Shown here: one piece after another, positions 33,361-63,282 of the stretch
Position numbering within the stretch: position 1 is the first letter of the stretch
Layout: every line of letters starts with the position of its first letter
Source: Amphiscolops sp. MND2022
Taxonomy: Eukaryota
Reading direction: 5' to 3'
Length of the DNA: 64,000 bases
Assembly: GCA_964187785.1 (NCBI GenBank)
Contig: OZ076409.1
Coordinates: 19,220,001 to 19,284,000 of the forward strand
Notes under the pieces: generated by a model
Seen by the model: the letters and a program-made list of their open reading frames with translations, nothing else
Database searches by the model: none
Told to the model about the DNA's origin: nothing
Program-made: the position numbers and the translations under genes

Positions 33361-34091
33361 TTTCTTTTGTCGGATAAGATGGGTTTTACACGGTAAAAAT
33401 AAAATCCGGTAAAAACGGTCTAAGTTCGTATGTTGCGGTATGAACTGAATCTACGGTAGAGGTCATGATGGCAGCATGTCACGGTACTGAAATAATAGCT
33501 CAGCTGAATAAAGACTAAATAGACAAAATTAGTTTAGATCGAAATTGCGGACGGTTGAAAAATGCAATCAGTTGAAATTGTGAGCAGTTGAAATGGCAAC
33601 AGTTGAAATTGCATAGATTGAAAGTGTATAGGAAAAAATGTCAAGTAACCGTTTTTCGTAGTGTGAGATCGAGAAGAGACTTCTGAATAATTATTCCTGA
33701 GTTTATTTAAATGACTTTGCTGTGTTTGTTTCTCACGTGGGAAAGAGTTTTTGTCTGTTAGAAGATTGCGATACTGTAGTATTCGACACTGTGCGGCTTC
33801 GTAGAGATTTTTTAAAGTCAAAGAACATTTTACCACGTGCTACCACAAAATCGTACTATTTTGTTTTTCATGGTGTTAGGTCAAGGAGAAGTCCATATTT
33901 TGAGTCATGCTAAATTTAAAGTGCAGCCAGGGGCAGCGAAGCGCTCCTTTTGATTCTTTTATTGTTAAGTATTTGAAAGATGCTAAATGAGACCAAAAAG
34001 CGTTTTGCTTCCTTCCAGTTTTTCCGGGAATACATTTTTCAGATTTTTGTCGTCTCTAAATGGTTACCCTTTTGGTATTTTGAAGACAAAG

Positions 34092-36349
34092 TGTTACGAC
34101 TATTAACCGGTGTTGTTTTAGAACTAGTCGCAGTTTGTGTCTTGACTGGAGTGGACGTTCTCGTCACGGAGATGTTTTCTTGTTCAGAATCAGAATCTTG
34201 TATGTTCGAGCTAATTGAGCGTTTCTTGTTCGCTGGTGCTATTAATTTAAGCATTTCCTTTTGGTTTTCGGCTAATATCTTTGTTAGATCAGTCATTATT
34301 TCTTTCCTCAGAGTTGTTTTTATTTCCTCCAGGTTTTCAAACTCAAGTCTAGGATTTTTACTAGAACTGGGTATCAGGTTTCCAGTAGAGTTATTTTCAG
34401 TTAAGGAAGCTTCGAAATCTCCTGACACTAAATCAGCTACAGCTTTCCTCTTCTGGCTTCTAGTGGTCATTTTTGATGTTAAAAAATGATTCTTCGGCAA
34501 TAGATGAATTCTTCGAAGATGATTTTGTTCAACGTTGAAACAACGAAAACAGTTTAAGTTTATTACAACTTGCAAAACACAACTAACTGACTTTACATGT
34601 CTCGTCTAAGTATATATACCTTCTTAGCGTCATTTGTTCCTCACCTAAAAATTCCTAGGAATCGCAAAATTAGGTTTGTTCAACAAAAAGCGCTAATGAT
34701 TCATATCATTTCAGTCGCGCGTCGTAAAAATCAGGCATCAAAATTCCTAGTTGCGTCAGTGTTCCGTAAATTTGTTGAAATCATTTTTGTTCAGGCAATC
34801 CCATTTCCTGTTTAAGTCTCAAAATTGCGGTAAAATAAAAGTCTAGCTTGCATTTTCATCAGCGTAAGTACGCCGGCATGAACAATTAGTCAACTTTCAA
34901 TTTGGGAGATTGAGATTCGAAGTAAAAGAATGACTCGCAAAAATTAACGAAATTGAAACGAGGCAAAAGGAATTTTGGACTACTGATATTTGAATATTAT
35001 TGAGGAACAAGCAACGCTAAGAAAAACATAATGATGATTAATCGGTTAATTTTGTAAACTGAACAACTGCACCAACAGAAAATCCAACTTTGACCTATAC
35101 GTGGCCATAACGTAACAAGTACGAATTGCGAAGTACAAATAGATAGGAAAGAAATGTATTTGCAGGCAATAATTATTCTGCACTCGATTGGGCTTCGTAT
35201 ATGAATAAACAGGGCAGGCATCCTGCATCAATAGCACTTGGTTTGGGTTTTGACGTTGACCTTACGTTACGTTCTGTGAAACATTTTAATGATAAACAAC
35301 TAATCACTGAATACATAAACTCTTAATGTAACGTAAGGCACACGTGAATTGAGAAACTATTGCAATAGCACCGTTACTCTTCGATCATAGTTTTAGCCCC
35401 TTCTTACAGTACAACCTTTTACATGTGGACTTGTTTTCAAAAACCCTTTAAGTGCGTCGATTCAGAAAAAATCCTTATTTGATTTCGGTTTAAACTAATA
35501 CTTCACCGCTATTATTTTACGAATTGTTCCGTACGTATTAAGATTGGTTATAGCTGAACGGCGGAATACAATTTTACAATCCGCTCCGTAGCTGTCCCGT
35601 ACGTATTAAGGTTGCTCATAGCTTAGCTATCGGACCAAGCGGAGAGAAAGCGGAGTGCGTAGGTGAAATCATTCTCTCTCTCTTATTCCAATTGGTGTTG
35701 CTAGGGGCAACCGAAATTGCTTCTATTCAACTTAGCTAAGAATAGTTCTATCAATAGAGTGACGTTATTGGTCCGTAGAAGCAAAATTCCTAATATTAGC
35801 TCAGTAGATTGGCGTTGCCATAGCGTTGTAAATATTTGCCTAAATCACTTGGCTGTGCTTTAAGTGAATATTGACAACCACTTCATCTCTGGAAAACAAT
35901 TCCGCTCTATTATTTGTCTGTTCCTTTTCATTTTAGATTGTATGAATTCCGTTGGGATCTCGGAATTGAATTTATTTTAATGTTTTCATTTTAGTGTGGA
36001 CCAGTGGAAGGAATGATCCCAATTATAAATGTTCATTTTAGTGTTTAGATTAGTATGGCAGAAAATCAGAAGATCATACCGGAAATGAAAAATCTTATCA
36101 CGCGCGGAGAATAGTTAACCGGAAGTTTTAGTTAAAAATCATTTCTGAAAAACGTTCCGTAACGTTTACGTTAGGTTTTGTATTCGAGAAATTATCTGCA
36201 ACCGATTTAGCTGTACTGTAAGTAAAATTTAGATCAGTTTAAATTTAAGTTAGTTTAATAGAGTTTACCTCGGCCTTGTCCCCGGCCAATTTCGAAACCA
36301 GGTATCCCACTGCAGCAGCTATAATCCCGACCGGGAGCGGGTCGTGACA
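34092..36349 (-). repeat. 3' LTR (2258 bp)
   Basis: Direct repeat of 48042-50299, preceded on the minus strand by the PPT. Confidence 0.97.
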
Positions 36350-37124
36350 GGGCCCCTCTTGAAGCAAGAGACAAGGGTATAGCTCGGCAATGGGGAATTT
36401 CTTTCCTGATGATGACAGGGGGACGGCCGTTAAGAATCCGCGTGCCGCGACTACGTCCTCTTCCCGAAGTCATTTTGGTTATGAATCTTTCTTCTTCTTC
36501 CATTTCTCGAAGCTCCTGTTCTCTTCGCATCGTCTCGATAGGGCATATCTCCGGCGGCTTAGTAGGGTCGCTTAACGCACAATTGCATTGCTCTCTTTTG
36601 GTCGGAGGGGGGGCATTCTCTTTAGCTCCGTAGTGAGTGCGTCCACGGCCAACTGTTGCGAAAAACTGCCGATCTTCTATGTCTAAGCCGTGTAGTGAGT
36701 CCAAATCTGCCAGCGAAGGCTCATTCAAGTCATTCAGCTTGACTGTGTTTGGAGCTCTTTCATTTCCTAATTGGGGAATGTTTGCCTTTTCTTTTAGGAC
36801 TGGTGTTGGTCTTGTTTGGGGCTGGCTCGGCGGCGTATCCGGTTCTTCGTAGAAGTCGGTATCTGAGTTAGGGTTTACTGCTGGCGGTAGATTAAAACTT
36901 ACTCTCCCTAGCTTTTTCTTTTTGCTGGGGGTAGGGCCGCGCTTTTTCGGAGAACAGTCAGACTCGGATGTTGAATCTGTTTCAGCTTCACTCCCACGGA
37001 ATGCTTCCGTTGACGAGTCACTAAGAGTGCTGATCGTGTTGAGGGGTAATGCCTTCAATGGCGTACTGCAACGGTTATTATCTTCGTCGGAAGATATATC
37101 TATCACCAACGAGTATCCGTTCAT
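36255..37124 (-). CDS. Sense accessory ORF (289 aa, disordered, SIM-like and NLS-like motifs) spanning the PPT and ending in U3
   Basis: ATG at 37124; LVIDISSDED, PKKRGPTPSKKKKLGR, RG-rich C-terminus; the last 95 nt lie inside the 3' LTR. No signal peptide or transmembrane helix visible. Confidence 0.65.
   Translation of the reverse strand: MNGYSLVIDISSDEDNNRCSTPLKALPLNTISTLSDSSTEAFRGSEAETDSTSESDCSPKKRGPTPSKKKKLGRVSFNLPPAVNPNSDTDFYEEPDTPPSQPQTRPTPVLKEKANIPQLGNERAPNTVKLNDLNEPSLADLDSLHGLDIEDRQFFATVGRGRTHYGAKENAPPPTKREQCNCALSDPTKPPEICPIETMRREQELREMEEEERFITKMTSGRGRSRGTRILNGRPPVIIRKEIPHCRAIPLSLASRGALSRPAPGRDYSCCSGIPGFEIGRGQGRGKLY
36350..36360 (-). promoter_or_regulatory. Polypurine tract AAGAGGGG(CCC)
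   Basis: Minus strand reads aagaggggccc|tgtcacg at the 3' LTR boundary. Confidence 0.65.
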
Positions 37125-37282
37125 GATTGCAGAGATTAAGTTTTGTAGGATTCTGGCTTATGTCTTCTTTGACTAGTTCACAGAGCATTAGTTTGGCAGA
37201 AGATGCTGGTCAAGCTTTTATGAAAATTGGACGACAAATGAACGTTTCAAATTCTTTCCTTCGTAATTTTTAACGAAATTCT

Positions 37283-37445
37283 ATTGGTCGGTTTTTCCGC
37301 TTTCGTTTCGGTGCGTCTCGAAATGAAAGAAACGAGTTCTTTCTTACTGCGTTGTGATTGGTCGAAATAATTGATGAAAACTTCTAATTCTAGTAGCCGT
37401 CCTCTTTTCGGTTAATGGCGTAATGACGTCACACAGTTTCATTGG
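37283..37445. promoter_or_regulatory. Putative internal bidirectional promoter
   Basis: ATTGG (CCAAT) at 37283, 37357 and 37441; TGACGTCA at 37424-37431; lies between two divergent start codons (37124 on -, 37715 on +). Confidence 0.45.
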
Positions 37446-37714
37446 TGTATTACGCCTGTGTTCCGTGATCTCCTGATGATTTTCTTAATTCTTCTTTAGC
37501 ATTTCTTGGTGGATTTTTATCCATCTTTTGGAAACGTTTTGTTCCGTCAATGCCATAATAGGCTTTTAAAAGGAAAAAGGAGATTGGAACATAGATGATT
37601 TTCTTTCCTGTAAAAATGATGCTGTTGATCCTTTTCTTGTCTTTTACGTTCGCTTTGCGTAGTTTTCTTCTTGATTTTTCCTTTTGTTTTAGATTTCTTG
37701 ATTTATTATTCTGG

Positions 37715-40700
37715 ATGGATGGTGATTTTGGTCCTCCTGCTGGTACTGGTGCAAAGTTCGTCAGTGGAAACGAGACAACATTCAATTTCACCGATGATGA
37801 TGTTGTTCCTTCTGACATCGATATTTCTCGTTCTGCTTCGGGTTGGTAAAATCTTTCTGACTTCCTGGGCAATAGGACTATTGTTTTGGTGATCAGCCTT
37901 TTATAGTCTTACCCGTAACTCTGACGCGTCTGAACCAGATCTTGATTTTCAGTAACTCAACCCATTGCGCTGCCCGGGCTTAGCTCCCATACGGAGGCTA
38001 GTCGTTCTTTGGTTCCCGTGGGACTCCCTTCCATTACCGATGCATTTCCGGTTGCCTCTGTCAACGCTATCCTGACGACTGTTCTTGCTGGTTCTGGGCA
38101 TGCTGCTTCTTTCCAGCCTGGTTCCTCTTCGTTGTTAGAGGCTCCCGACGTCAGTACTGGAGTTTCGCGAGATGCCACCGGATTTGGTTCTCAGCTTCAA
38201 GATGCTGCTGTTGTTAGTGAGCCTCGTGGAGGCGAGGCCGTTCCGGCCTCCCCAAAAGAAAGTGGAGGAGGAAGAAATGATGTGGAAGCTGCGACTGTCG
38301 ATGTCATGGAACCAAGTTGTTCTCGTGAGCGGGCTGTGAAGTTTTCGACTCCGCCACCGCAACGTCAAGGTGGTCATTCTCCTAGTTTACAGGAGCTTAT
38401 GGCTGAGGGATGGAGCAGTTAGTTGTTTCTCTTTTTTTTTCTCATCCTTTCCTTTTCTCTTCTCTTCGTTTTGTGGAATGCTTGTATGGAGTTGTTCAAT
38501 TTAGTCTTCTGGTTGGGTTTCTCAGAGTGGTTCGGGATTCCATAGTGTTTCCACCTAATTGTTTTGATGTTTGTTATAGGTGATCCAGAAGCGGAGGAGG
38601 AGGTGTTAGCTTTCCCCGGCAATACTCCGTTGAGTCCGATTGACTTGGCGCAATTTGGGCGTCATCTGATTTCTGAGGTGGAGACTCGGGCAGTACAAAG
38701 TATCGAGACAGGTACGTTAGTATGTCATAGTTGATAGGGGGTTGTTTAGGTGTGGTTGGGGTTTTGGGGTCGCAATATCGTGTGTCATATTTATAGATGG
38801 TTGTGTTATCGTTTGCAGGTTTCACGAAGTTGTCGAAGAAGATTGGAGATCGCTGCCAGCGGCGAGTGCGAACTTATGGGAATCGCAAGCATTTGAAGAG
38901 ACGCATGTTATCTTTGCATCCCGCATATTCCAACTTTGTCAGTGGCTCTAAGTGCGGGGAGCCTACGTCCTTCTTTTGTCGAGTGTGCAATCGAGATGTG
39001 CGGATGAAGGCACAAGGATCTGGCGAGTTTAAACGTCACTTCGCATCTGATGGGCACTGGTTTCGTGACGTGCGCTACAGAGTACATTCAGGGTTGCCCG
39101 TATACAACAGATGGTTGGAGCCTATGGAACTGACTGCCGCTCAGATTGCGGAATACAAAGCTCAACCTTTTGTGGACTTGGCAGAGGGGTTTCCCTTTCC
39201 AGAAGATTTGGTGCCCAAACATGCCCAAGTTGATTCAAAGGTCCCATTTATGACCATGATCTCGGCCGTCTGTGAGTGGCTCCGGAGTGGCGGCGATTTC
39301 ACGTTGCTGCGACGTTTATGGGCGTGTTTCCGAGCTTCTTTGGGTGAGAGGGCGCCCGAATATCAGCTGAATTGGAGTCGTGCTGAGACGGTGGTAAGTA
39401 GGGGTATTACATATTTTTGTGGTCTTTGGGTTCATGAGCTTTGTCTGTATCGTTTTCCCTCTTTTTCCCTTTTTTTTTCTTCTTTTTTCTTTTCTTCTTC
39501 GGGAGGGGGGGGCAGTAGTAGTGTGGTTTTGTAGTCATGGTATTTGTATATTGTTTCAGTCCTTGCTGTGTCGTGGCCTTGCTCCTCGGGTGTTGCGTTT
39601 GGTTCTCAGTGCAGTCGGGACGCGCAATGAATATGCATTGTTCTATGAGAAAGACGCGGATGTGGAACGATGCTTTGTTGTGTGCTGGTTGGATAATGCT
39701 CTGCAGAAAATCTGCATTGGTCAGGAAGTTTTGGACCAGCCTATGCCCAAATCCGAGTTGGTTCCTTTGGCACAGTTCGTCCATAGTGTGCAAAATGCGC
39801 GCCTTCCCTTTTGTGTCAGCGGTGCTAGTCCGGTGCTTCTTCGAGTGATAGAGGACAATCGTACTGATGGGAAACGACTTGTTATGCATCAACAGTTTTC
39901 CGAGGAGGTGTTCCTACAGTGTGTGCGTCAGGCACATCAGGATGTTTTCGGAATGGTAGAGGTGACAAGTTTGGTGGACTATGTCATTTTACGGCTAAAG
40001 AGCGCTGTGTACGAGGACTGGACGGATGGCAAGGTGTTGCTGCGCAAGGCCATTCGTCAAGGTTTCGTTGCCTTCCAGGATCTTCGTGAGGTTCTGACTG
40101 ATTTGGTGGACCTGTGGCCTTCAATTCGCCTGTTCATTAGGTGTACCGGATTGCCTCATGTGAAAGATCAAGCCGACAGTGTGAGTTTGTTGCATGATTT
40201 TTTTTTTCGGGAGGTTCTTCACGGTCGTCTTGTTGGTCATCTGTTGTTTTCCGTCTGCTTAGTTATTTTGTGTTGTTGTTTAGTTGAGAGGTATGGATTC
40301 AACTGTGATCTCAGACGGACTGGTGCCGTATCGTTTTGGGCTGTTGCAATTGATGTTGGATACTTTCCATATTCATTTGCCGAAGTTGAGACAGAGCCGC
40401 AGCGATTATGCATTCCATGGCTATGGTGAATTATGCAATTTCGTATACTGCTTGTTGATGAAGACACGCCAGTTATCAAGTCTTCCAGCTATTCACGATT
40501 GGGATGCATACATGGACGTGGAGAAGGCGGCAAGTTTCCCTGTTGCACCTATAGATGAGTTCTTGGCTCACTGTGATTATGGGAAGTCTCTTTTGTCGTC
40601 GAAAGCGAGCGAGATGCCAAAGTTTCGTGGTCGCTGCAGAGAATTTATCGATCGCCTCGTCACTCTGTTAGTGGAGAGTGCCAGCACTCGTTCCATTGTT

Positions 40701-41576
40701 TCGAAAGGTCTGTGCAGTTTCTGCCCTGAACTGATGTTAGAAGGTGACGATAAGTGTGCGTTTGATTTGTTTTTTGAGCTGTGTGATGGTCTTGTGAGGT
40801 GCGGCGCTTTATCTCGAGAAGAATGCAATGCTGCTGTGGATGAGTATAGTGCGTACGTGATCGAGAAACGCAGGCAGCATAGTCGATTGGAGCGTTCTGC
40901 CAGTTCTATTACGGACATTCGCCGCTACTTGCTGGATGATTTTGGGTTCCAGTCACGACGACATGTACTTCGTGTCTTCAAGTTGTGTTGTTTGCTTGTC
41001 GGTGAGCCCAACCGTGTTAGTCCTCCGTTTACTCTTGATCTGTCGAGTTGTAAACAGGCTGAAGGAAGTGTTCTTCTGTGTTGCAGAGTTGTTCAATCGT
41101 ATGTTTTGAGCGACGGTTATTCTCCGCAGTCATTATTTACTGAGTCATCTATGGGCCTAATTCGAGATGCAGTTTCTGATGCTGGGTTATTTTATATTGG
41201 CTCTGATTTTAACGTGTGGAAAGATTTGTGTGATGCCGGTGTGGACTCGTTTATTGCTTCTTTTTGCGAGCTGTATAAAGAATTTTTGGCAAAGCGACGT
41301 CAATCCAGTGATGAGCATTATACGGAGTGTAATCGAGTCAATCGTTTGTCTCGGGCAGAGCAGGGGTCTCGTAGTAGTTCCGTTGTGCAGAGTAGTTCCA
41401 GTTCTGTTAGTGGAAAAGGGAAAAGTGGTGGAAGTAAAGTTGGTGAAAAGAGCACTGATGGGAAGCAGGTCGGGAAGACGAAGAAGTCTAACGTGCAAGC
41501 TGGTGGTAGTAAAACGACTCCGAAGAAGAAGTCGAAGAAAGACATTGATCCTTCCGTACATCATCATGTCAAGTGA
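37715..41576 (+). CDS. Antisense spliced accessory gene inside the retrotransposon; exons 37715-37841, 37953-38417, 38580-38711, 38819-39393, 39560-40180, 40284-41576 (3213 nt, 1070 aa); BED-like zinc finger plus hAT-transposase-like body
   Basis: Five GT-AG introns (111, 162, 107, 166, 103 nt) with phases 1,1,1,0,0 that join six open segments into one frame; C-x2-C-x16-H-x5-H at 38977-39057. The first exon and start codon are the least certain part. Confidence 0.82.
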
Positions 41577-41722
41577 TTTGTATTGTGACGATTTGTAGAC
41601 TTTTATTATGTTTTGATGGTTCTGAAGGAACTATAATTTTGGCTTTGTTGCTGTTCTCTTTAGTTTAGATGATAATTTTACGTAGCTACTCCGGTTCGGT
41701 TTAGCCTGCTGATTGTTTTCAT

Positions 41723-44700
41723 TTAGTTTTGAGTTTGACGTAAATCGTCCGCTGTAGTTGAGTTTAGCATTCTGAAGTCAGGATCCACGTTGGGTCTCGG
41801 ATTAGGTCTCAAATTGTATCGTCCCACTTTTCTAGGATTGTATCCAACGACTATAGGCGGTAATTCGGGTGTTTTGGGAGGGCTGTGTATCGGTGGTGGG
41901 GTCAAAATATATGGGTTATCGCTGACATCTAGATCAAATGACGTTATATTGTCGGAAGGTGTTTTATCTGCTGCAGTATTTTCATTTGTGGCTGTTTGAG
42001 CCACGTCGCTTTCCGTTGTAGCTTCGTGTGTGGTTGTTTGAACCACGTCATTTTCCACTGTGCTTCCATTGGTGGTTGTTTTAACCACATCATTTTCCGT
42101 TGTAGTTTCGTTGCGTCCTGTTGTGTCTGTGATTTCTGTAACTGTGGCTTCTTCTGCGGCGTTTTCGGTATTGTTTCCGAACAGAACTTCTCCGAATTCG
42201 GTTTCCCAAGCTTGCGCGTACCAATCATTGTGGGTTGTTTTAACCTCTGGGTCTGGAAGATAATCTTCCCTTCTGACTGTTACGTCAGGTACTCGCTGAT
42301 TGGGCGCATATAGCCTTAGGCGAATTCTATGGAGTGTTTGGGTATATCTAGTTCCCGTGCGGCGTACGACGTAGTTGTTGTTCGAGAGTACTTTGACTAC
42401 TATGTAGGGTCCAGTCCAAATGCAATCTTTAAAAGCGAATTTCATCGACTGGTTGTCTGCCTTCGGATTGAGGACGTAACAGTAGTCATTGACTTTGAGC
42501 GGTGTAGCTGTTGCTTTCTTGTCATAGTACTGTTTGTATTTGAGGTAGGATTGCATTAGGTTTTCTTTGGCGGCATGGTGTATTTCGGATATTTGCTTCT
42601 GTAGTTGATCCGTTAGTTCGTCGTTGCTATCTTTTTTCCATTCGGGTTTCAATCCGAGTTTTATGTCTAGGATGTTGTACGGAATGCGTCCGTGAAATAC
42701 TGTTGTAGGTTCACAACCTAGGCTTTCATGATAGCTCGTATTGTAGTTCATGACCGCGATCTGGACATATTTATGCCACATAGAGCGTCGTTCTCCCGTT
42801 GATATCTTTAGGGAGGTTTTCAAAGAGGCATGAGTCCTTTCTAGGATGCCAATTGTTTGAGCGTGTTTCGTTGATGCGTGGCTTATCCGTATATCCAATG
42901 TTTGTGTTATTTGATTGACTACTTCTGATCTGAATTGTGATCCTTTATCTGTTAGAATGACGGTCGGCAGGTAGCAGTGTCGTGTCATGACGTCTATTAT
43001 GCATCGTGCGACTGTTTTGGCTGTCATGTCCTGTGTCGGGTAAGCGAAAAGGTAACGTGAAAAAACGTCCATCATCGTTTTGATGTGTTGGTATCCATTT
43101 GAGGAAGGTAGGTTTGGTAGAATGTCTACTTCTAGGCAGTCTTCTGGTCCCATTGTGAATTCAGTGTTGCTTAGCATTTTAGGGCGTATTTGTCTTGTGT
43201 CAATTCTTTTATTGGCAATGCAGTCTTGACAGCTGGTTACCCAAGCTCTGATTTTACGTGCAAGACCCGGGAAGTAGTATTTCGCTCTGCATTCTTGTAT
43301 CATTTTTGCGATTCCTGGATGTTTATTTGTTTTCCCATGTAGAGTGGCCAAGAGTTCTGGGACTAGGTGTTTCGGAATTATGATTTGATTATGGGTGACT
43401 GATCCGTCTTCTCCGTAGTATTTCCGCATCAGAACTCCATCTTTCATTATGATTCTTTCTTCGTGGCGTAATAGGTTACGTCCTCGTGGTTCGGTTTTGA
43501 GAAGGTGTTTGTCATATTCTTCGTGTGAAATCCGTTGTTTCAGTGCTTTGAGGAGAGGGTCTGCATCTTGCTCGTTTCTGATCCGTGCATTTTCTTTGAT
43601 TGCACCGAAGGAGTAGACTGCGGAGTTGAGTGGTATCTTGATGACTTCGGTTACTTTTGTTGATAATTCTCTCTCATGTTCGTCTAGGGCGCGTCGCTTG
43701 CTGAGTGCTTTTCGGGCAAAGATTTCTTGTTCAGATTCATCTTCGTCATCAGGTAGGAAGAAAAGTTGTTCTTCATCAGCTACATCTGATGATTGTAGAT
43801 TGACCTCAATTGGGGACGTTAGGATGTCGTCTCGTAGCTTAAGTTGTACTTTTTCTTTCGGTGTAAGTTCGAGTCTTGAGAGAAAATCTGCTGCTGTGTT
43901 TTGGGAGCCTGCTACGTGCATGATTCGAAACTTGAATTGTAATACATAGTCGCAGGCATTCCAGAGTGCAGCGGGTGTCGTTTTGGTCTGGAAGAATCTC
44001 GTTACTGAGCGGTTGTCCGTTAAGACCAGGGTTGGAATTGTTGCTTCCCAAAGTATGTGACTGTATTCGAGGAATGCATGATAGATTGCTAAGAATTCCT
44101 TGCAGTAGATAGACATTTTCAGTTGTGCAGGTGAAAAAACTCGTGATCCGAACGCTACTGGTGCGAAAGTTTTCCGTTTGGAGAGTATTTTGCGTTCATC
44201 ATTCTCCTCAATCATGAGGGCGTAGCCTGACGCACGAAAGCTTGCGTCCGTCATTAGGACGTACTGTTTCCCTGCTATAGGCTGTCTTAGTGCGAGTCCA
44301 CAAGCTTCCGCTAAACTGGCGTTGATTTCCCTAAAGTTATCGACAAGTTCTTCTGAAATTCTGATCTTGGAGTCTGCTTTAAGAAGTTCGTACATGCCGA
44401 TGAGTTTTTCTGATAAGCGCGGTATGTAGTTGCGGTAATAGTTAACAAAGCCAATGTACTTTTGAACTTGTTTTTTGGATTTGGGGAAGCGTACTTTGGA
44501 GAGGAAATTTTTGACTTTTTGATCTTGCGGGGCTACTCCGTCAGGGGTGATGGTTCGTCCAAGAAATTCGACTTGGGTTACTCCAAAATGGCATTTTTCG
44601 ATGGTTAGTTTTAGTCCTGCTTTCCGGATGCATTTGAAGACTGCTCTGATATTTTTTATGAGCTGTTCCGTTGTGTTTGCGGCAATGCCAATGTCATCTA

Positions 44701-47020
44701 CGTATTGTGCACATTGATCGGCTTTAATGACTGAGTCCAGATACTCACGCATGAAGCTCGAAAAGGCTGATAGGGCTCTGCTTAGTCCTTGTGCCAGGCG
44801 ACGGTAGGCGAACGTCCTACTAGCAAAATTAAAAGCAAGTAACTCTACTGACCTTTGATCTGCCATTTGAAGGCAGTGATACGCCTGGGAGCAGTCGAGT
44901 TTGCAGAATAGTTTTTTCCCTGCTAGGTGTTGTGCCGCATCTGAGAGGGTGCTGACAGGGTGGTTGTTGTTGATGTAGTCATCTGCTATGAGTGCGTTGA
45001 TTTTGCGCAGATCCACCAGTAGTCTCAGTTTGCCGTTGGGTTTCCGTTGTGCAAATATGGGACTGGCGTACTTGGAGAAAGGGAGTGTCGTGATGATGCC
45101 GTATTTGTGCATCAGTGCCAGTTCCACTGTTAGGTCTTCTTTGAGGTTGATTGGGACGGGTAAACTCTGTGTGTAGACTGGTTTGTCGTCCTGTGGTGTT
45201 AGGCTGACTTTGAACTGTGTATTCATCCCGATATCTAGTCGGTGTCGAGCAAAGATGTCATTGAATTCAACAATGGTGTTCTCAAGTTTTTCACGATCTT
45301 TGCCCGTAATTAGTGAGTCTGTCCATTTGAACATTGATAGAAATTTGTTGCGAGAGTCTTCGTTTTCGGTTGGGTCAAGTTTTTCTAGTTCGGCAAGGTC
45401 TCGCAGTTCTTTCAGGATTCGCTTTTGTATGGGTGAATGTTCTTGTTCGTTGCCTGGGTGTTCTGGGGTTGGGAACCAGAATTTTCCTTCATTGTCTTCT
45501 GGCCGTTCTACTTGCATTAGTGCGTTGATGTACGTGATTACATCGTCATGGTCATTGAGGAGATTCAGGGCGGCAATGTCAACTGGACGGATCATCTTCG
45601 TTTCTTCTGGTTTCAGGATTTGCAGTTCAGCCATTTTGGTGTCGTTGGCTATTGTGTATGGAAAATCCGTGGTGTTGGCGATTTTAATTGGAAGCTTTTT
45701 ATCTCTAGCTGTTGTAATCGCTGGGGCTACTATTACTTTCGCGCATTCATCGAATTGTGGTAGGGGTTGTATTGTGCCCGTTATTGGGTGCTCAATACTC
45801 ACAGGGATTGTTGCGTAGATGACTCGGGTAGAGTGCGCTGGGATTGTATGCTTGGCTTCGGTCTTTATTGTGATGGGTTTGGGATTGCACTTTTGTCTTT
45901 CGTCTGTGAGCGCCATCGTGATTTGAATCTTGGGAAAGTTGATGGTTCCTTGTGCTGTGTCAAGGATTGCGGCATGCTTTCGTAGAAACGCTAATCCAAT
46001 TATGGGGAATGACGTTTGATTCATGATGATGAATGTTTCTTCAAAAGTGTAATCCCCTATCTTGAAGCGTAGAGTGTACGTGGCAAGTGGTTGTTCTAGT
46101 TCGGCATTGGCGTATTGCACTTTGAAAGGGGGTGGAGGTGCTTTGTTAATAATGCATTGACTCGCATTTTGGTGGAGTTTTTCAGCATCCCGTTCGCTAA
46201 TAGCATTAATGTACGCACCTGAGTCGACTAAGGCTTCGATTTTGACAGTGTTGAATTCGATTGGTAGGAAGAGCATTCTCTTTTTCTTCTTGAGGGCAAT
46301 TGCAGACATTAACGGGATGTAGTCGTCTTCCTTGTCGTGCTGGATGAATTCTTTGATGACATCTAGATCTTCTGGTAGTGTTGGGTGACATTCCGTTATT
46401 TCTTCGTCTTCAGCGGCTATTGCTGTGGCTGGCGCGGTTTGTGGTGATGACGAGAGCGAAGCGGTGTTTTCTCGCTGTTCTCTTGCTTGTCGTGACCATA
46501 TTGTTTTGTCTTCAATGCATAAGATGTTTTCGGCATCGATCGGTGTGGACGTGACGGTGACGGGTGCTGTTGGGGACGGTGTTGTTCTTTTTAGGATCGG
46601 TGACGGCGGTGACGGTAGGTTTGTGGTCTTCGTGGTTTGAGCTTGAGGGTTTGAGACTTGTATTTTGAAGGATAGTTTATTTGTACCATAGATGGTTGGT
46701 TCATCCCAAGGGTCACATCTGTAGTCTCTGTCATATATATAAATTCGGTCTGTTTTTGATTCCGGCAACGGTCTTTTGAGTGTCGCATAGTTATCAGGTG
46801 ACTCCGTTATCCACTGGGGTAGTGGTGTTGGGTCGTCTGGGTGTCTGGCGTTATGTCTGAGAATCATGCCTACGTTCCAGCGGCGTTGCCAGTCTTGAGT
46901 TGGTTCTTCATTACATTCAGTTAAAAAATCTTCTTCATACCTGTTTGGGGGGTCCTCTATCGTGTACGCCCTCGCGTCTACTTTTTCCCCAAATCGTAGG
47001 CGCGGCGATTTTAGTTTTTT
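41723..47020 (-). CDS. pol: Pol polyprotein (protease, RT, RNase H, integrase with GPY/F module); frame open from 47050, entered by -1 frameshift
   Basis: ALVDSGA protease; RT LDCSQAYH, QGL, YVDD; RNase H TDAS..KEFLAI..TDN..ADFLSR; integrase H..HPG..C..C, MDVFSRY, TDKGSQF, GILERTH; WTGPYIVV. No internal stops in 1714 aa. Confidence 0.97.
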   Translation of the reverse strand, partial: KKLKSPRLRFGEKVDARAYTIEDPPNRYEEDFLTECNEEPTQDWQRRWNVGMILRHNARHPDDPTPLPQWITESPDNYATLKRPLPESKTDRIYIYDRDYRCDPWDEPTIYGTNKLSFKIQVSNPQAQTTKTTNLPSPPSPILKRTTPSPTAPVTVTSTPIDAENILCIEDKTIWSRQAREQRENTASLSSSPQTAPATAIAAEDEEITECHPTLPEDLDVIKEFIQHDKEDDYIPLMSAIALKKKKRMLFLPIEFNTVKIEALVDSGAYINAISERDAEKLHQNASQCIINKAPPPPFKVQYANAELEQPLATYTLRFKIGDYTFEETFIIMNQTSFPIIGLAFLRKHAAILDTAQGTINFPKIQITMALTDERQKCNPKPITIKTEAKHTIPAHSTRVIYATIPVSIEHPITGTIQPLPQFDECAKVIVAPAITTARDKKLPIKIANTTDFPYTIANDTKMAELQILKPEETKMIRPVDIAALNLLNDHDDVITYINALMQVERPEDNEGKFWFPTPEHPGNEQEHSPIQKRILKELRDLAELEKLDPTENEDSRNKFLSMFKWTDSLITGKDREKLENTIVEFNDIFARHRLDIGMNTQFKVSLTPQDDKPVYTQSLPVPINLKEDLTVELALMHKYGIITTLPFSKYASPIFAQRKPNGKLRLLVDLRKINALIADDYINNNHPVSTLSDAAQHLAGKKLFCKLDCSQAYHCLQMADQRSVELLAFNFASRTFAYRRLAQGLSRALSAFSSFMREYLDSVIKADQCAQYVDDIGIAANTTEQLIKNIRAVFKCIRKAGLKLTIEKCHFGVTQVEFLGRTITPDGVAPQDQKVKNFLSKVRFPKSKKQVQKYIGFVNYYRNYIPRLSEKLIGMYELLKADSKIRISEELVDNFREINASLAEACGLALRQPIAGKQYVLMTDASFRASGYALMIEENDERKILSKRKTFAPVAFGSRVFSPAQLKMSIYCKEFLAIYHAFLEYSHILWEATIPTLVLTDNRSVTRFFQTKTTPAALWNACDYVLQFKFRIMHVAGSQNTAADFLSRLELTPKEKVQLKLRDDILTSPIEVNLQSSDVADEEQLFFLPDDEDESEQEIFARKALSKRRALDEHERELSTKVTEVIKIPLNSAVYSFGAIKENARIRNEQDADPLLKALKQRISHEEYDKHLLKTEPRGRNLLRHEERIIMKDGVLMRKYYGEDGSVTHNQIIIPKHLVPELLATLHGKTNKHPGIAKMIQECRAKYYFPGLARKIRAWVTSCQDCIANKRIDTRQIRPKMLSNTEFTMGPEDCLEVDILPNLPSSNGYQHIKTMMDVFSRYLFAYPTQDMTAKTVARCIIDVMTRHCYLPTVILTDKGSQFRSEVVNQITQTLDIRISHASTKHAQTIGILERTHASLKTSLKISTGERRSMWHKYVQIAVMNYNTSYHESLGCEPTTVFHGRIPYNILDIKLGLKPEWKKDSNDELTDQLQKQISEIHHAAKENLMQSYLKYKQYYDKKATATPLKVNDYCYVLNPKADNQSMKFAFKDCIWTGPYIVVKVLSNNNYVVRRTGTRYTQTLHRIRLRLYAPNQRVPDVTVRREDYLPDPEVKTTHNDWYAQAWETEFGEVLFGNNTENAAEEATVTEITDTTGRNETTTENDVVKTTTNGSTVENDVVQTTTHEATTESDVAQTATNENTAADKTPSDNITSFDLDVSDNPYILTPPPIHSPPKTPELPPIVVGYNPRKVGRYNLRPNPRPNVDPDFRMLNSTTADDLRQTQN
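41995..42120 (-). repeat. Three imperfect 42-nt tandem repeats encoding 14-aa Thr-rich units in the integrase C-terminal tail
   Basis: TTENDVVKTTTNGS / TVENDVVQTTTHEA / TTESDVAQTATNEN. Confidence 0.8.
46965..47020 (-). promoter_or_regulatory. Programmed -1 ribosomal frameshift signal (A AAA AAC plus downstream stem-loop)
   Basis: gag ends CCA AAA AAC TAA; pol frame reads AAA AAA CTA AAA TCG; downstream CGCGCCTAC..GTAGACGCG can pair. Confidence 0.8.
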
Positions 47021-48420
47021 GGCTGAGAGGACGTGGTAGGTACAGGTTGTTCACTGATTTTGTTGGTTGGGATTGTGAATTCTCGTTTCTTCTTCCTGGG
47101 GTCATTTACTGCGTTGGCTCCGTTCCAACAATTCTCAGTTTTGTGCATCTTGCCACATGTATCACACTTGGGTTTGGGTACTTCGTTTTGGGCTGGGTCT
47201 TTTGTGTTTGTTTTGGCGGTATTGTAACGCTCTCGTTGAAGTTTGCGACACTGTGCCTTGTAGTGGCCATATTTGCCACAGTGAAAACAATGGCCTCGTT
47301 GTTGTTGGTCTTTTTTATGGTCCGTCACTACAGCGTCCACTGTGTTGAGTGGGACTAGGATTGTTTCATCGGGCGCACCTAGTCCGTTTAATCTCATTTC
47401 CCTCTCAAGATGTAAAACTATGTCATTGTAGGGTTTATCTTCCAAATATGCTCTGTTGAGGATCTTTTTGACGTGATCCGGCATTTTGGCGTAGATTGCT
47501 TTATCAATGAATTTTTGTGCTTCTGAGCCGAATGCTTCTTTTGCAGTTTTTTGCAGGGTGTCGAGGAACTCATGGAGTTTCTGTTTAGTGGGGTCAAAAT
47601 GCAGGGCGTCCCACTCACATCTCGCTTTAGCGGATGATTGGAAATCACCAAAGCGGCGTTTAAATGCCGTTATGACTTCTTCTAGGTTGTCTTTTTTGGT
47701 GTCATCGAGATTACAATACGCTTGTAGTGCGTTTCCTCGTAGGAGTGAATGAAAGTAGTTGATCTTTTGTATCTCGGTTAGGTGAGGATACATTTTGATA
47801 TTGTTTCGGAATAGGTCCTCAAAAAGTTCAAACTTTTCGGACTTACCATCGAAAACTGGGAGCGAAGCAGTGAGTGCTTTCGGCATCGGAAGTAGATTGG
47901 TTGATGGGAATGTCTGTGGTTGTGGGGCGAACAGGATCTTTGATGTGGAGGGACGGTCTTTTTGTTGTTCGTTGAGTATACGTTGCGTTTTCGGTCGTTT
48001 GGTGGGTTGGTTAGTGGAATCATTGAGGACTCCTGTCACCATGTTACGACTATTAACCGGTGTTGTTTTAGAACTAGTCGCAGTTTGTGTCTTGACTGGA
48101 GTGGACGTTCTCGTCACGGAGATGTTTTCTTGTTCAGAATCAGAATCTTGTATGTTCGAGCTAATTGAGCGTTTCTTGTTCGCTGGTGCTATTAATTTAA
48201 GCATTTCCTTTTGGTTTTCGGCTAATATCTTTGTTAGATCAGTCATTATTTCTTTCCTCAGAGTTGTTTTTATTTCCTCCAGGTTTTCAAACTCAAGTCT
48301 AGGATTTTTACTAGAACTGGGTATCAGGTTTCCAGTAGAGTTATTTTCAGTTAAGGAAGCTTCGAAATCTCCTGACACTAAATCAGCTACAGCTTTCCTC
48401 TTCTGGCTTCTAGTGGTCAT
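47011..48420 (-). CDS. gag: Gag, 469 aa from MTTRSQKRK; first ~126 codons lie inside the 5' LTR
   Basis: Capsid-like LPVFDGKSEKFELFEDLF..KINYFHSLLRGNAL; knuckles CFHCGKYGHYKAQC and CDTCGKMHKTENC; first ATG at 48420 (the track ORF starts at an upstream TTG). Confidence 0.9.
   Translation of the reverse strand: MTTRSQKRKAVADLVSGDFEASLTENNSTGNLIPSSSKNPRLEFENLEEIKTTLRKEIMTDLTKILAENQKEMLKLIAPANKKRSISSNIQDSDSEQENISVTRTSTPVKTQTATSSKTTPVNSRNMVTGVLNDSTNQPTKRPKTQRILNEQQKDRPSTSKILFAPQPQTFPSTNLLPMPKALTASLPVFDGKSEKFELFEDLFRNNIKMYPHLTEIQKINYFHSLLRGNALQAYCNLDDTKKDNLEEVITAFKRRFGDFQSSAKARCEWDALHFDPTKQKLHEFLDTLQKTAKEAFGSEAQKFIDKAIYAKMPDHVKKILNRAYLEDKPYNDIVLHLEREMRLNGLGAPDETILVPLNTVDAVVTDHKKDQQQRGHCFHCGKYGHYKAQCRKLQRERYNTAKTNTKDPAQNEVPKPKCDTCGKMHKTENCWNGANAVNDPRKKKREFTIPTNKISEQPVPTTSSQPKN
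48029..48041 (-). promoter_or_regulatory. Primer-binding site TGGTGACAGGAGT, tRNA-Leu-like
   Basis: Directly abuts the 5' LTR CA; resembles the complement of the tRNA-Leu 3' end (TGGTGTCAGGAGT). The tRNA assignment is from memory. Confidence 0.7.
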
Positions 48421-50299
48421 TTTTGATGTTAAAAAATGATTCTTCGGCAATAGATGAACTCTTCGAAGATGATTTTGTTCAACGTTGAAACAACGAAAAC
48501 AGTTTAAGTTTATTACAACTTGCAAAACACAACTAACTGACTTTACATGTCTCGTCTAAATATATATACCTTCTTAGCGTCATTTGTTCCTCACCTAAAA
48601 ATTCCTAGGAATCGCAAAATCAGGTTTGTTCAACAAAAAGCGCTAATGATTCATATCATTTCAGTCCCGCGTCGTAAAAATCAGGCATCAAAATTCCTAG
48701 TTGCGTCAGTGTTCCGTAAATTTGTTGAAATCATTTTTGTTCAGGCAATCCCATTTCCTGTTTAAGTCTCAAAATTGCGGTAAAATAAAAGTCTAGCTTG
48801 CATTTTCATCAGCGTAAGTACGCCGGCATGAACAATTAGTCAACTTTCAATTTGGGAGATTGAGATTCGAAGTAAAAGAATGACTCGCAAAAATTAACGA
48901 AATTGAAACGAGGCAAAAGGAATTTTGGACTACTGATATTTGAATATTATTGAGGAACAAGCAACGCTAAGAAAAACATAATGATGATTAATCGGTTAAT
49001 TTTGTAAACTGAACAACTGCACCAACAGAAAATCCAACTTTGACCTATACGTGGCCATAACGTAACAAGTACGAATTGCGAAGTACAAATAGATAGGAAA
49101 GAAATGTATTTGCAGGCAATAATTATTCTGCACTCGATTGGGCTTCGTATATGAATAAACAGGGCAGGCATCCTGCATCAATAGCACTTGGTTTGGGTTT
49201 TGACGTTGACCTAACGTTACGTTCTGTGAAACATTTTAATGATAAACAACTAATCACTGAATACATAAACTCTTAATGTAACGTAAGGCACACGTGAATT
49301 GAGAAACTATTGCAATAGCACCGTTACTCTTCGATCATAGTTTTAGCCCCTTCTTACAGTACAACCTTTTACATGTGGACTTGTTTTCAAAAACCCTTTA
49401 AGTGCGTCGATTCAGAAAAAATCCTTATTTGATTTCGGTTTAAACTAATACTTCACCGCTATTATTTTACGAATTGTTCCGTACGTATTAAGATTGGTTA
49501 TAGCTGAACGGCGGAATACAATTTTACAATCCGCTCCGTAGCTGTCCCGTACGTATTAAGGTTGCTCATAGCTTAGCTATCGGACCAAGCGGAGAGAAAG
49601 CGGAGTGCGTAGGTGAAATCATTCTCTCTCTCTTATTCCAATTGGTGTTGCTAGGGGCAACCGAAATTGCTTCTATTCAACTTAGCTAAGAATAGTTCTA
49701 TCAATAGAGTGACGTTATTGGTCCGTAGAAGCAAAATTCCTAATATTAGCTCAGTAGATTGGCGTTGCCATAGCGTTGTAAATATTTGCCTAAATCACTT
49801 GGCTGTGCTTTAAGTGAATATTGACAACCACTTCATCTCTGGAAAACAATTCCGCTCTATTATTTGTCTGTTCCTTTTCATTTTAGATTGTATGAATTCC
49901 GTTGGGATCTCGGAATTGAATTTATTTTAATGTTTTCATTTTAGTGTGGACCAGTGGAAGGAATGATCCCAATTATAAATGTTCATTTTAGTGTTTAGAT
50001 TAGTATGGCAGAAAATCAAAAGATCATACCGGAAATGAAAAATCTTATCACGCGCGGAGAATAGTTAACCGGAAGTTTTAGTTAAAAATCATTTCTGAAA
50101 AACGTTCCGTAACGTTTACGTTAGGTTTTGTATTCGAGAAATTATCTGCAACCGATTTAGCTGTACTGTAAGTAAAATTTAGATCAGTTTAAATTTAAGT
50201 TAGTTTAATAGAGTTTACCTCGGCCTTGTCCCCGGCCAATTTCGAAACCAGGTATCCCACTGCAGCAGCTATAATCCCGACCGGGAGCGGGTCGTGACA
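48042..50299 (-). repeat. 5' LTR (2258 bp)
   Basis: TG...CA ends; six substitutions versus 34092-36349 on a by-eye comparison (~99.7% identity). Confidence 0.97.
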
Positions 50300-53200
50300 C
50301 AAAGAAAAATAAGATTATCATGCCTAAAGTTTTTTTAGTATTTGTGGCACTGTCTGACTTCTTGGGAAACATTCTATTTCCCTGAAGATCTTTACTTTGA
50401 ATGTTCGAGCCTTCTTGATAGAATATAGTCTTTTTCAACCTGAGAGGATTTCCCATTTGTTTTCTCTGGCTTCTTTGTTGAATTTGTTTTTAAGAGGAAG
50501 TTCTAGACAAGGCAGGAGTTTGTATCTGGAATTGATTCTGAAGATTGTCAAAGGTTTTGTCAAAGATTGTGAATTGTTTCAATTTGAACCACGAAATTAT
50601 GCTTTACATAACCAATAAAATGATTTTCATAAAATTTCTAAGATAGCGTGCAGGGATATACTAATTTCAAGACGAAAAAGAAACTTCTTGAAAAATCTCA
50701 CAATGCCTAAAATTGTAAAAGGGATGATCCTTTTGGCCTTTTCAAAATCCGATTTATTGTAAAATGTCAAAAAATTGAAGAACTTGGGAGACATTGAAAA
50801 TATTCCGATGAAATGTCTCACAAGCCAAAATAACAAGTATAAAAATATCTGATGAAGTGCGAGACTAGAGCCCACTCCTTCTGCTTCTCAGGCCTCAAAA
50901 ACTCCTGAAAAACCCTTGTGCCAAGTGACAGTAGAAGTTAAAAATTAGTAAGCAACAGCTTATAAAACTTCAAAAATCTTTGAGTTCGTCGGTCTTGAAA
51001 ATTATAAAAAAAACATAGGCACGACGGCATGTCGCGCTTGGCTTCGAGCAGAAACGTTCAATGGTCTGAAGAAGGAGCTACAAAATGAGTATATCCCAGG
51101 GCCCAAAAGCTAGTGAACATATGTAGCTCCAGATTAGAATATTTTGATGGAAGAACTAAAAAGAAAAATATTTTTGAAAAAAATGAAAAAAAATTCTGGC
51201 AGAAACCCGACAGCGTCACACTTCATGACGGAAACTTTGATAGTACAAAACGTAGCATACATCTTTGCCTCACTTTGTGAGGGAAAATGGTTTCCGTATC
51301 CATTTTCAGTTCTGCGAAAAATCAGCTGCACGTTGGAAAAAATGGAAACATTCCATGAAAAATTTTTCATTACTTCACTTGCTGACAAAAATCCAGAGCG
51401 AAAAAAATTCAACGTAACTTTTAGCATCAAACGTAGAATACATGAGCTTCGTAAAATTAACGAAACCATGAAGCCCATATTTGGTCTCGGTCATGAGATA
51501 TAGGAGCTCAAGTGAAAAAGAACCATTATTTAAAAAAAATCAAGTGTTTTTGGCAAAAAAAAACGAAGACGTCATACTTGAATACGGAAATTTTGTTGGT
51601 CCAAAAAGTAGCCGACATCAATGTTGTTTTTCTCGATAGGGAATGGTTTCTGTATCTTTTATAAGTTTTGAGAAATTTGAGCTACGACATTTTTTTCATC
51701 ATTTTTTGCCCAAAAAAACCAAGTATGAAAAGTTTTAACGTCGTTTCAAAACCAAAACGTAGTCTTTGAAACGCTTGTATAATTTACGAAACCATGGACC
51801 CTGTATTTAGTATCATTTCTGACATATAAAGATCAGAGATGAAGAACATTCGAAAGTTGCGTTTTTTCAAAAATTGTTTTCAAAAAAACCCTTGAAATTT
51901 GAAAAAAAAATTTCGACGAAAATGTAGCCAAGGATCGTGCGAAACGTTTAGCGAAAACATGGTGTCCATATCTATTCTGGGTTTTGAGAAATTTTCCTCA
52001 CAAGTTTTAAAAGTTGGCACATGTCACGAAATCTGCGAAAAAAAGAAAACGTCACCATATGGGCACCTCGCAAAGCTCTAGCCCCAATAAAAGTCATACC
52101 AATAGCCTGGTCTTTCTGCCAAAGCCCCGTTTAAAATACCGCTCAGCTTTGGACTGATGAGATTGATATATAGTCTTTTCTATTGATTCATACAAAATCT
52201 TTGTTCTTTCTTTTTGCTGTAGAACTCTCAAATGTTTGACTTTGTGCTTGTATCTAGCCAAAATTTAGCGGAGAACTTGCGGATTGTACCAAAAACGCTG
52301 ATGTCGAACAAAAAATGTTATTACCTCTATGAATATTATATGCTACTAATACACGGTTTCCGCGTTAAATGAAGCCAATCTCACTTAATGTGAACGAAAT
52401 GGTAGCTTGAATGAAAGTGTAAGCGAACGCCGCATACGATTTTGGGTACACGTAGCATTCTTTGGTCAGCGTTTGTTTAATTTGAAAGCGTCGTTGGTGA
52501 TTCTTATTTGCTAACTCACATGGACGCTGATATTGTTCACTTAACTTCTGATTGTAGAGCACTTTTCGTTTGGTGGCCGGTGATTGCCCTAGTCGAGCCT
52601 GCATGAACTTTTTGCATGTTGCATCAATGCATGCAGGGAAACTTGTTTCTTTCGAGAATTTTTGTCATTGAAAATAGTGTCAGTGCGCTAATGACTCCGT
52701 GCCAAATTTTCTATGCCCTATCGTTTTCCAGGCGAAAAAAAAATGAATCGCACTGAAGATTTTTCAGTGAGACGATTTTTTTTGCTTCAGTGGCACATTT
52801 AGATGAGTTTGTTCACATCAAAAGTAGCGTCTGTGCATACAAGAACCCTCACTTTGCCCGCAAAAACTAACAAAAGTTTTGCGGTTCTTATCCTCTACAT
52901 CTTTGATGCTGCTCGTAAAACCCGCCAAATTTTGCATAAACCTTGATTAAAACCTGGATAATTATCAGCTCAACAGCGAAATTTTCGAGCATGAAAACAT
53001 CTTAAAGAATCACCTAAAACTTTAGTAAAAGTGTCAGGCAACCTATAAAAACATGTAAAAAGTTCATGCACTGTGAACAAGGGTGGCTGAAAATTTGGAA
53101 CGAAAGCAGAGACAATTCACTTAACATCTGATGTGCTTCACTCAACGCGGAAACAGCGCATAATTTGTTTCAACATTCATTAAAGTAAAATAAATTCATA

Positions 53201-57367: not shown

Positions 57368-57494
57368 CTGGATAAAAAAACAATACGCAATCCTTAAGTT
57401 ACAGAAGTAATAGAAATAGTTCATTTATCGATGTAAACTAAATGAGCGGCCAGTGGACGAAAAAAGGTAGGTTTTCAAAAACATTTTTCGTATA

Positions 57495-57699
57495 TGTGAC
57501 ATGAATACAGTTGAAGGTCAATAGTAACGCAATGTTACATAATTCTTACTTACTCTATGACCTTTTATGTTAATTACATAACATACCTGCTAGTAACTTT
57601 AATGTCATCTGTAGTACGATATAGTGGACACTATAACTTGATCTTACGTACAATACAGTATTACATTCCCAAACTTCTTTATTCCATTGGTATACAACA
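57495..57699 (+). repeat. 5' LTR (205 bp)
   Basis: tgtgacatg...tatacaaca, followed by the PBS. Confidence 0.95.
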
Positions 57700-57709
57700 T
57701 GGCGCAGTC
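57700..57709 (+). promoter_or_regulatory. Primer-binding site TGGCGCAGTC, tRNA-Ser-like
   Basis: Abuts the 5' LTR; same start as the tRNA-Ser PBS of Drosophila 297/17.6-type elements (from memory). Confidence 0.7.
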
Positions 57710-57712
57710 AGA

Positions 57713-63005: not shown

Positions 63006-63282
63006 TATTTACAGGAAACACCGTTAAACGAATAAACAGCCAAGCCAGCGGAAACACACAATCAGACTGAGGAGGACCGGAAGAGAAAACAGGAGGAACG
63101 TGAGGAAACCAGTAGCATGGTATCGAGGCGAGAAGCACCGTCAAATCTTAAACAAGAAACTGAACGGACTCATTATCAACAATTGAGTTGATACAACCTT
63201 TTTGTTCATACATGTAATCTAAATTTGTGTTATAAAATACAGTTATCAATTATACTAGATAACTTCCTGCCAGGGGGGGGAA

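Follow-up and report, generated by a model that had tools for sequence, protein, structure and literature searches.

The stretch of DNA analyzed here, hereafter the window, comprises 64,000 nucleotides of Amphiscolops sp. MND2022 (GenBank assembly GCA_964187785.1, contig OZ076409.1, forward-strand positions 19,220,001 to 19,284,000) and contains a Ty3/Gypsy retrotransposon, described as young, that occupies 16.2 kb of the minus strand (34092-50299). Two extra genes lie head-to-head between pol and the 3' long terminal repeat (LTR) of this element: a sense open reading frame (ORF) of ~289 amino acids (aa) and an antisense gene, which we call the cargo. Judging from profile comparisons, the cargo protein almost certainly originated from a hAT transposase. 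Its gene is located on the plus strand at 37715-41576 and is predicted to consist of six exons with 1,070 codons, with no internal stop in an exon-by-exon check and with GT-AG borders at all five introns. An earlier note on this DNA had proposed an antisense gene at 38819..41260 encoding a spliced protein of 1070 aa, and that interval proves to be the core of the six-exon model, whose exons and first intron are as follows:

37715-37841, plus strand: cargo exon A, an acidic exon that is conserved between families; its ATG is predicted at 37715
37842-37952, plus strand: intron 1, with a predicted hairpin and the 8-bp palindrome GACGCGTC at 37923-37930; the most conserved DNA of the module
37953-38417, plus strand: cargo exon B, of low complexity and rich in Ser, Gly, Pro, and Thr; evolving fast
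38580-38711, plus strand: cargo exon C, an acidic part followed by a helical part
38819-39393, plus strand: cargo exon D, with a CCHH zinc finger (38977-39057) and an N-terminal hAT match up to the GRTK motif
39560-40180, plus strand: cargo exon E, a degenerate RNase H-like core with Glu at the first-Asp position (39647-39649)
40284-41576, plus strand: cargo exon F, comprising a helical insertion domain, the hAT C-terminal region, and a basic tail rich in Ser and Lys

Cargo genes in this genome form two deep clades with ~28% identity between them, and the second clade carries the cargo core as a single, intron-free open frame of ~870-910 codons, with which exons D, E, and F of the window align end to end (24-34% identity). 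Exon F of the window also precisely lacks the intron that most families have after codon 27, which is present in 37 of 43 loci, precisely absent in three (the window, L042, and L045), and unresolved in three. Intron-bearing lineages enclose both the window and the L041/L042 element in the cargo trees, and a precise loss of this kind is the outcome expected from recombination with spliced complementary DNA (cDNA). We infer that the cargo transcript is spliced because the intron-free relatives are colinear with it and one intron has been precisely lost.

The hAT reference used for comparison was built, from this genome and 80 metagenome loci, for the subgroup whose motif the earlier note had used, and "GRTK-type" serves as our working label for it. 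That this subgroup is hAT is indicated by PF05699, which was over the cut-off in 4 of the 12 members scanned, and by the match of its profile to an Ac-type hAT profile (E 2e-17); D, D, C, H, R, and E are kept in all 24 reference rows that cover every anchor. When the cargo was aligned to this profile with hhalign, it matched with a probability of 98.3 across 590 columns, from the zinc finger to the C terminus, at a pairwise E of 1.3e-14 and with 13% identity. As controls, reversed profiles scored E 0.19 and 0.20, and none of 12 block shuffles did better than E 0.048. Separate, in-register hAT matches were also obtained for each of three consecutive cargo segments (E 2e-5, 4e-4, and 2e-8). A coincidental resemblance, or one due to a generic zinc finger in a gene of some other origin, might be argued from the blank Pfam, PDB, and fold searches described below and from the lack of a match between cargo exon profiles and the Ac-type hAT ORFs of this genome (E 0.1). 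The C-terminal segment, however, matches hAT without the finger (E 2e-8), as do exon F rows alone (E 4e-7), so the match does not rest on a generic finger; the segments are, moreover, colinear, and we consider such a coincidence exceedingly unlikely.

The hAT match was also recovered reciprocally. A hidden Markov model (HMM) made from cargo sequences only reached hAT ORFs at E 5.5e-7 among 864 targets, where the best reversed decoy scored 2.7 and the top 30 matches were all forward ORFs. Conversely, an HMM made from hAT sequences only found window exons F and D at E 1.5e-5 and 8.6e-5, respectively, in a set of 134 targets for which the best reversed sequence scored 1.2, and at E<0.01 it matched 11/11 intron-free ORFs, 16/19 exon F rows, 13/20 exon D rows, and 0/17 exon E rows. 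Shallow hAT profiles gave weak N-terminal matches only (E 0.009 to 2e-5), and a deeper profile was needed. An ESM Atlas feature search with the 890-aa intron-free relative P0039, performed blind and treated here as a lead only, listed family-bearing rows of the hAT type, and eight of its 10 best family matches fell into one family or clan (scores of 0.81-0.84). The controlled, reciprocal profile matches support the hAT origin proposed in the earlier note, whose by-eye registers agree with the profile posteriors (0.93-0.95 for WSRAET/GRTK, 1.00 for LAP, 0.94 for the first Asp, 0.84 for the W-to-F position, and 0.99 for SFCP/LDP). All of the peptides that it quoted were found in the sequence, as was its C-x2-C-x16-H-x5-H zinc finger, at 38977-39057.

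Several points weigh against this ancestry. The reference family was picked by way of the motif in the earlier note, and the E-values are pairwise or come from small target sets, making this a targeted test and not a database search. Pfam searches of the exons, alignment members, 18 library matches, and six intron-free ORFs returned nothing above cut-off; the best result of PDB sequence searches was an unrelated protein (E 0.083); and Foldseek and VIA found no usable match for the AlphaFold models of exons E and F (predicted local distance difference test, 48 and 41), which are uninformative on fold. Exon E is weak by itself (profile E 0.014), in keeping with its lack of matches to the hAT HMM. 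The Pfam and PDB checks that had been recommended earlier (zf-BED, PF05699, and Hermes) were therefore blank for the cargo, the AlphaFold and fold-search check did not help either, and the hAT call came from the targeted profile test. At low confidence, the exon E model has the order E-E-E-H-E-H-E followed by helices, which fits an RNase H core, and the exon F model is all-helical. The C-terminal dimerization region is aligned in the profile comparison; PF05699 itself had no match on the cargo, and the last 120 columns of the cargo profile alone gave no significant hAT match (E 0.14). Exon F by itself yielded no consistent family in the ESM Atlas and no homologue in a word-indexed search, in which exon D had two close relatives. 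A PF14291 search of the genome found no match anywhere, with controls equally silent, and viral contigs contained no hAT relatives. According to the profiles, the nearest relatives of the cargo are a hAT subgroup poorly covered by the Pfam and PDB libraries and not the Ac/Hermes type. Several GRTK-type hAT families are present in this genome (L157-L215), with many copies internally deleted, and three of their ORFs that were scanned had no Pfam family over the cut-off. In one metagenome hAT transposase (L279:1179-3878), an OTU-like cysteine protease domain is present at the N terminus (Pfam E 3.5e-14).

The ligands of the zinc finger (C, C, H, and H) are conserved in 17, 16, 18, and 19 of 18-20 intron-clade rows (posterior 0.97-1.00) and in 7/7 rows of the intron-free clade, and Pfam zf-BED does not match the cargo finger. 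The first-Asp column holds Glu in 14/15 intron-clade rows and Arg/Lys in 7/7 rows of the intron-free clade, as anticipated by the earlier suggestion that the first catalytic Asp had been replaced. No acidic residue occupies the second-Asp position in either clade (alignment posterior 0.28); at the third acidic position, the intron clade has Thr/Ser and the intron-free clade has Glu/Asp (posterior 0.42); the CxxH columns hold F/Y and E/D/S in both clades (posterior 0.13-0.15); and the W of the RW motif is F in 17/17 intron-clade and 7/7 intron-free rows, with the R not conserved. Exon E of the window (39560..40180) likewise lacks the second Asp and CxxH and has Phe for the RW Trp. The loss of DDE, CxCH, and RW residues suggested by the first inspection is supported for the catalytic set by column counts and needs amending for the RW Trp, which is Phe in all rows and not absent. 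From these columns, it is very likely that transposase catalysis has been lost. In the yeast hAT protein Kat1, passages of one study report that catalytic-residue mutants do not cleave, that CxxH is required for hairpinning, and that specificity comes from the zinc finger (PMC4763223).

Some of the same columns speak for caution, as the alignment near the second Asp and CxxH is uncertain (posterior 0.13-0.28), a Glu is conserved at the first-Asp column of the intron clade, and Glu/Asp stands at the third position of the intron-free clade. A retained but altered activity, as a nuclease or in end processing, could rely on rearranged acidic residues and draw on that first-column Glu and on the 20 columns that are acidic in both clades, given the low certainty of the core alignment. 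None of these columns, however, comes as close as four positions to either the second or the third catalytic site, the intron-free clade has Arg/Lys at the first-Asp column, CxxH is gone, and the catalytic exon is the least recognizable part of the protein, all of which make such an activity very improbable.

The unit that carries the cargo is the Gypsy element, which is bounded by a 5-bp target site duplication (TSD), CAAAG, and has a primer binding site (PBS) next to its 5' LTR:

34092-36349, minus strand: 3' LTR of the Ty3/Gypsy element, 2,258 bp, TG...CA; TSD CAAAG at 34087-34091
36255-37124, minus strand: second accessory ORF, ~289 aa, sense to gag-pol, extending into the 3' LTR; head-to-head with the cargo
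41723-47050, minus strand: pol (protease, reverse transcriptase [RT], RNase H, integrase), frame open for 1,775 codons
47011-48420, minus strand: gag, with its ATG inside the 5' LTR and a frame that passes through the primer binding site
48030-48041, minus strand: PBS TGGTGACAGGAG, common to both clades and to the non-autonomous derivatives
48042-50299, minus strand: 5' LTR, 2,258 bp; TSD CAAAG at 50300-50304

The two LTRs differ by six mismatches (99.7% identity), and the element has the features of the Gypsy class, namely TG...CA LTRs, a PBS, a TSD, gag, and a pol ordered protease-RT-RNase H-integrase. Terminal inverted repeats (TIRs) and an 8-bp TSD, the marks of a hAT element, do not enclose the cargo gene; the mobile unit is defined by the LTRs and the 5-bp TSD. 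No inverted repeats of >=60 bp occur in the 64-kb window, short TIR relics not having been searched for. The first 126 codons of gag (48042-48420, minus strand) fall within the 5' LTR, and an identical gag start is carried by the 3' LTR. Among 27 loci listed for the second accessory ORF, most have a near-invariant N-terminal LVIDISSDEE-type motif and many have a KKKK..RVSF-type stretch; these resemble a SUMO-interacting motif and a PP1-docking motif, respectively. The intron-free clade has a different ORF of 210-270 codons at this place.

Tail-to-tail with Gypsy pol is the arrangement of the cargo in 89 of the 90 protein-picked loci that were counted (10/10, 19/20, 30/30, and 30/30; 24 further loci are outside the count), which agrees with the earlier proposal that a class I element had captured a class II transposase. 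The single exception is a locus filled by a tandem triplication. At L105, cargo exons A to E are in tandem triplicate with 2.5-kb spacing. All four intron-free-clade elements that were fetched whole have 2.1-2.2-kb LTRs, the same PBS, and an RT 82-84% identical to that of the window. With its antisense orientation, its position between pol and the 3' LTR, and its conservation in most copies, the cargo has the hallmarks of an antisense accessory ORF. Exon F has 117 scored matches in the 1.07-Gb genome, a lower bound, and 107 of them are without a stop. Exact genomic matches to the intron-1 patterns of the two clades number 788 and 223, versus 0 and 1 for reversed controls; these are motif counts, at least 1,011, and three of 12 sampled sites had no cargo core. 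The cargo-bearing Gypsy lineage has about a thousand copies in the genome.

The ratio of nonsynonymous to synonymous substitution rates (dN/dS) is ~0.04-0.10 for the cargo in unsaturated pairs, similar to that of integrase (0.07 for L111/L115), and 0.18 for the frameshifted exon E of the window/L041 pair. The cargo is under strong purifying selection across both deep clades. Searched against 1.84 billion proteins, a profile of exons D and E matched 733 at E<=0.001; of the best 150, 18 were scanned and none had a Pfam family over the cut-off, and none of 10 names looked up was informative. Because two of the 733 relatives are only 39-40% identical to the best scored match in this genome, the cargo family probably extends to other species. 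Other candidates for the gene were rejected: a chance antisense ORF by selection and splice sites; an env-like gene by antisense orientation, the zinc finger, and hAT homology; and a recent nested hAT insertion by the same position in both deep clades, the lost catalysis, and the lack of a TIR/8-bp TSD unit. Elsewhere in the window, a second, unrelated Gypsy element (57494-63487, plus strand) has identical 206-bp LTRs, a frameshifted pol, and an RT 23% identical to that of the cargo-bearing element, and a dispersed AT-rich repeat family is represented by several partial copies (4069-5108, 9030-9609, 14631-15596, and 55435-56291).

Cargo and integrase appear to have had different histories. Within the intron clade, their distances give a Spearman correlation of 0.06-0.15, for an integrase segment of only 168 aa, and in the pair L126/L128 the integrase dS is 0.056 and the cargo dS is saturated or near-saturated. 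Near-identical integrase segments adjoin deeply diverged cargo genes in L126, L128, L137, and L141 and in L114 and L115. This disagreement within clades points to frequent exchange of the 3' module between pol backbones by recombination, and a unit that acts on linked cis sites would therefore fit better than a partner of integrase. The result bears on an alternative in which a protein of the same hAT origin acts at integration, where it would ride with the cDNA or integrase, aid nuclear entry, or tether to chosen chromatin. Transposase scaffolds hold the DNA ends in hAT transpososomes, and the cargo has a basic tail. Nuclear import has also been proposed for plant antisense ORFs in parts of a review (PMC7264820). 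Discordant histories, on the other hand, are unexpected for a tight partner and weaken integrase tethering, and we regard a role at integration as unlikely.

Intron 1 was found in 26/26 loci at 83-93% identity, and the other cargo introns in 0-6 of the 26. Its palindrome GACGCGTC occurs once in the window and is single-copy per element; it stands at the same place in 30/30 intron-free-clade loci, is present in 17/20 intron-clade 10-kb loci, and is found in 0/190 hAT loci. The distribution makes the GACGCGTC element a candidate DNA target of the cargo protein. It counts against this assignment that the intron-1 element may equally be an RNA signal. A protein of the same hAT origin might bind the intron-1 hairpin as RNA, much like Rev/RRE, and control either export, dimerization, or packaging of the genomic RNA or its own splicing. 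For intron 1, a hairpin with a palindromic loop is predicted in both clades, with a different hairpin before the same palindrome in the intron-free clade; base pairing is possible between the 5' splice region and the beginning of exon B, and one pair is changed on both sides in 4/26 rows; and the block is kept by non-autonomous elements. Single-sequence folding of intron 1, however, is no better than that of shuffles (z of -0.6 to 0.8), covariation is thin, with a double change in 2/25 pairs only, Rfam returned nothing at gathering score, and Gag or host factors could read an RNA signal without the cargo. RNA binding is, in our view, decidedly improbable.

The non-autonomous LTR elements (L343:5344-9711, L345/L346, L340/L331, and L341/L332) are 3.8-4.4 kb long and retain only the PBS, the remains of the pol tail, and the block formed by exon A and intron 1. 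A 4.4-kb family is known from three copies that are 93-96% alike; their LTR pairs are 96-99% identical, and two of the copies have 5-bp TSDs. Neither gag nor pol nor the hAT core is left in this family, which retains the PBS and, with 79% identity to the window, the exon A/intron 1 block. As a sign of cis function, this retention is suggestive only; the elements were chosen by the motif, so its retention is partly built in, which also detracts from the case for a DNA target. Because CpG is not depleted in the element or its flanks (observed/expected, 0.9-1.4), an anti-silencing role, if there is one, is unlikely to be directed against DNA methylation, which weakens the VANC-like role suggested in the earlier note.

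We tentatively propose, as a possibility to be taken seriously, that the cargo, a hAT-derived, catalytically disarmed protein under selection, regulates its own element by binding specific DNA sequences without cutting them and so keeps copies of that element transcribed. In the cargo protein, 240 acidic, low-complexity N-terminal residues precede a hAT scaffold whose finger is intact, and a basic tail follows, an anatomy that suggests the layout of such a regulator. A hAT element or gene would have inserted antisense behind pol in the common ancestor of the two clades and then lost mobility, with the antisense orientation allowing introns to outlast reverse transcription of the genomic RNA. 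The cargo would be transcribed from an internal promoter, head-to-head with the second accessory ORF, and then spliced. Its finger and transposase scaffold may recognize a short sequence motif of the element, for which the intron-1 palindrome is the best candidate, while the added acidic, disordered N-terminal residues could displace silencing factors or bring in activators and the basic tail could provide nuclear import. A fuller version, in which the disarmed protein binds GACGCGTC and forms, with the SUMO-interacting-like partner ORF, a swappable two-gene anti-silencing cassette whose cis motif is exploited by the non-autonomous elements, seems to us somewhat doubtful. The cargo might instead act on the host or on competitors, as a general silencing suppressor or a dominant-negative hAT inhibitor. 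Sections of one paper describe an inactive domesticated transposase, ALP1, that antagonizes Polycomb (PMC4671723), and related hAT elements are present in this genome. Such action is highly unlikely, though, in view of the dedicated conserved cis motif inside the cargo gene, and mixed multimers with host hAT transposases would be unlikely because cargo-hAT identity is 13%.

Overall, the cargo appears from its sequence to resemble a domesticated hAT protein that does not pass the catalytic tests of an active transposase, and the element that carries it belongs to the Gypsy class and not to the hAT transposons. It is like GRTK-type hAT transposases (the DUF4371/FAM200-ZBED5 RNase-like/Dimer_Tnp_hAT neighborhood) in domain order and spacing over the 590 aligned columns, the common order being a CCHH finger, a GRTK/LAP region, RNase H strands, a helical insertion, and a C-terminal region. 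Unlike them, it has no catalytic set, has ~35 extra residues after the finger, adds acidic N-terminal exons and a basic tail, and lies within an LTR element instead of between terminal inverted repeats. ZBED and FAM200 genes are host-domesticated transposases. Like these and ALP1, which, in the passages cited, has kept its scaffold, has likely lost catalysis, and has a chromatin/transcription role (PMC4671723), the cargo is a transposase relic put to other use, but here a second mobile element is the domesticator, and the gene itself moves and is present in multiple copies. The antisense accessory ORFs of plants and fungi (maize Grande gene23, RIRE2, Retand TRP28/PF04195, and Boty) share its antisense position between pol and the 3' LTR in most copies, and excerpts of two papers report or propose for them a promoter of their own and a nuclear role (PMC7264820, PMC11963269). 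Parts of the review describe the origin of such ORFs as mostly unknown, similarity to other transposable elements as lacking, and the Retand ORF as having the TRP28 domain only (PMC7264820); the cargo differs from them in its traceable full-length DDE transposase ancestry and its five or six introns.

VANC of Arabidopsis VANDAL, which may serve as a model for the role proposed for the cargo, is also an element-encoded accessory protein that depends on a short motif in cognate elements, but it belongs to a DNA transposon, counters DNA methylation, and is not described as transposase-derived in the passages cited (PMC6719617, PMC13317346); the cargo element, unlike that of VANC, shows no CpG depletion and has its motif in single copy. 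The ORF3 genes of bdelloid LTR elements (GDSL esterase and DEDDy exonuclease) are likewise extra genes downstream of pol with traceable enzyme ancestry, but they keep their catalytic residues according to the portions cited, and the word "transposase" is absent from the main text of that paper (PMC5408684). Our literature search, with repeat databases and supplements outside its scope, turned up no case in which a retrotransposon had domesticated a whole hAT transposase.

Known domesticated transposases are host genes, and here the domesticator is a mobile element of another class, in which the cargo has been kept through deep divergence and in about a thousand copies. The sections cited of the review (PMC7264820) call the origin of this type of antisense accessory gene unknown, and the cargo provides a case in which it can be traced. 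Transposase relics missed by Pfam and PDB may also hide among other orphan cargo genes of LTR elements. Together with the natural non-autonomous derivatives, the candidate protein-motif pair formed by the zinc finger and GACGCGTC makes the function of an accessory gene directly testable.

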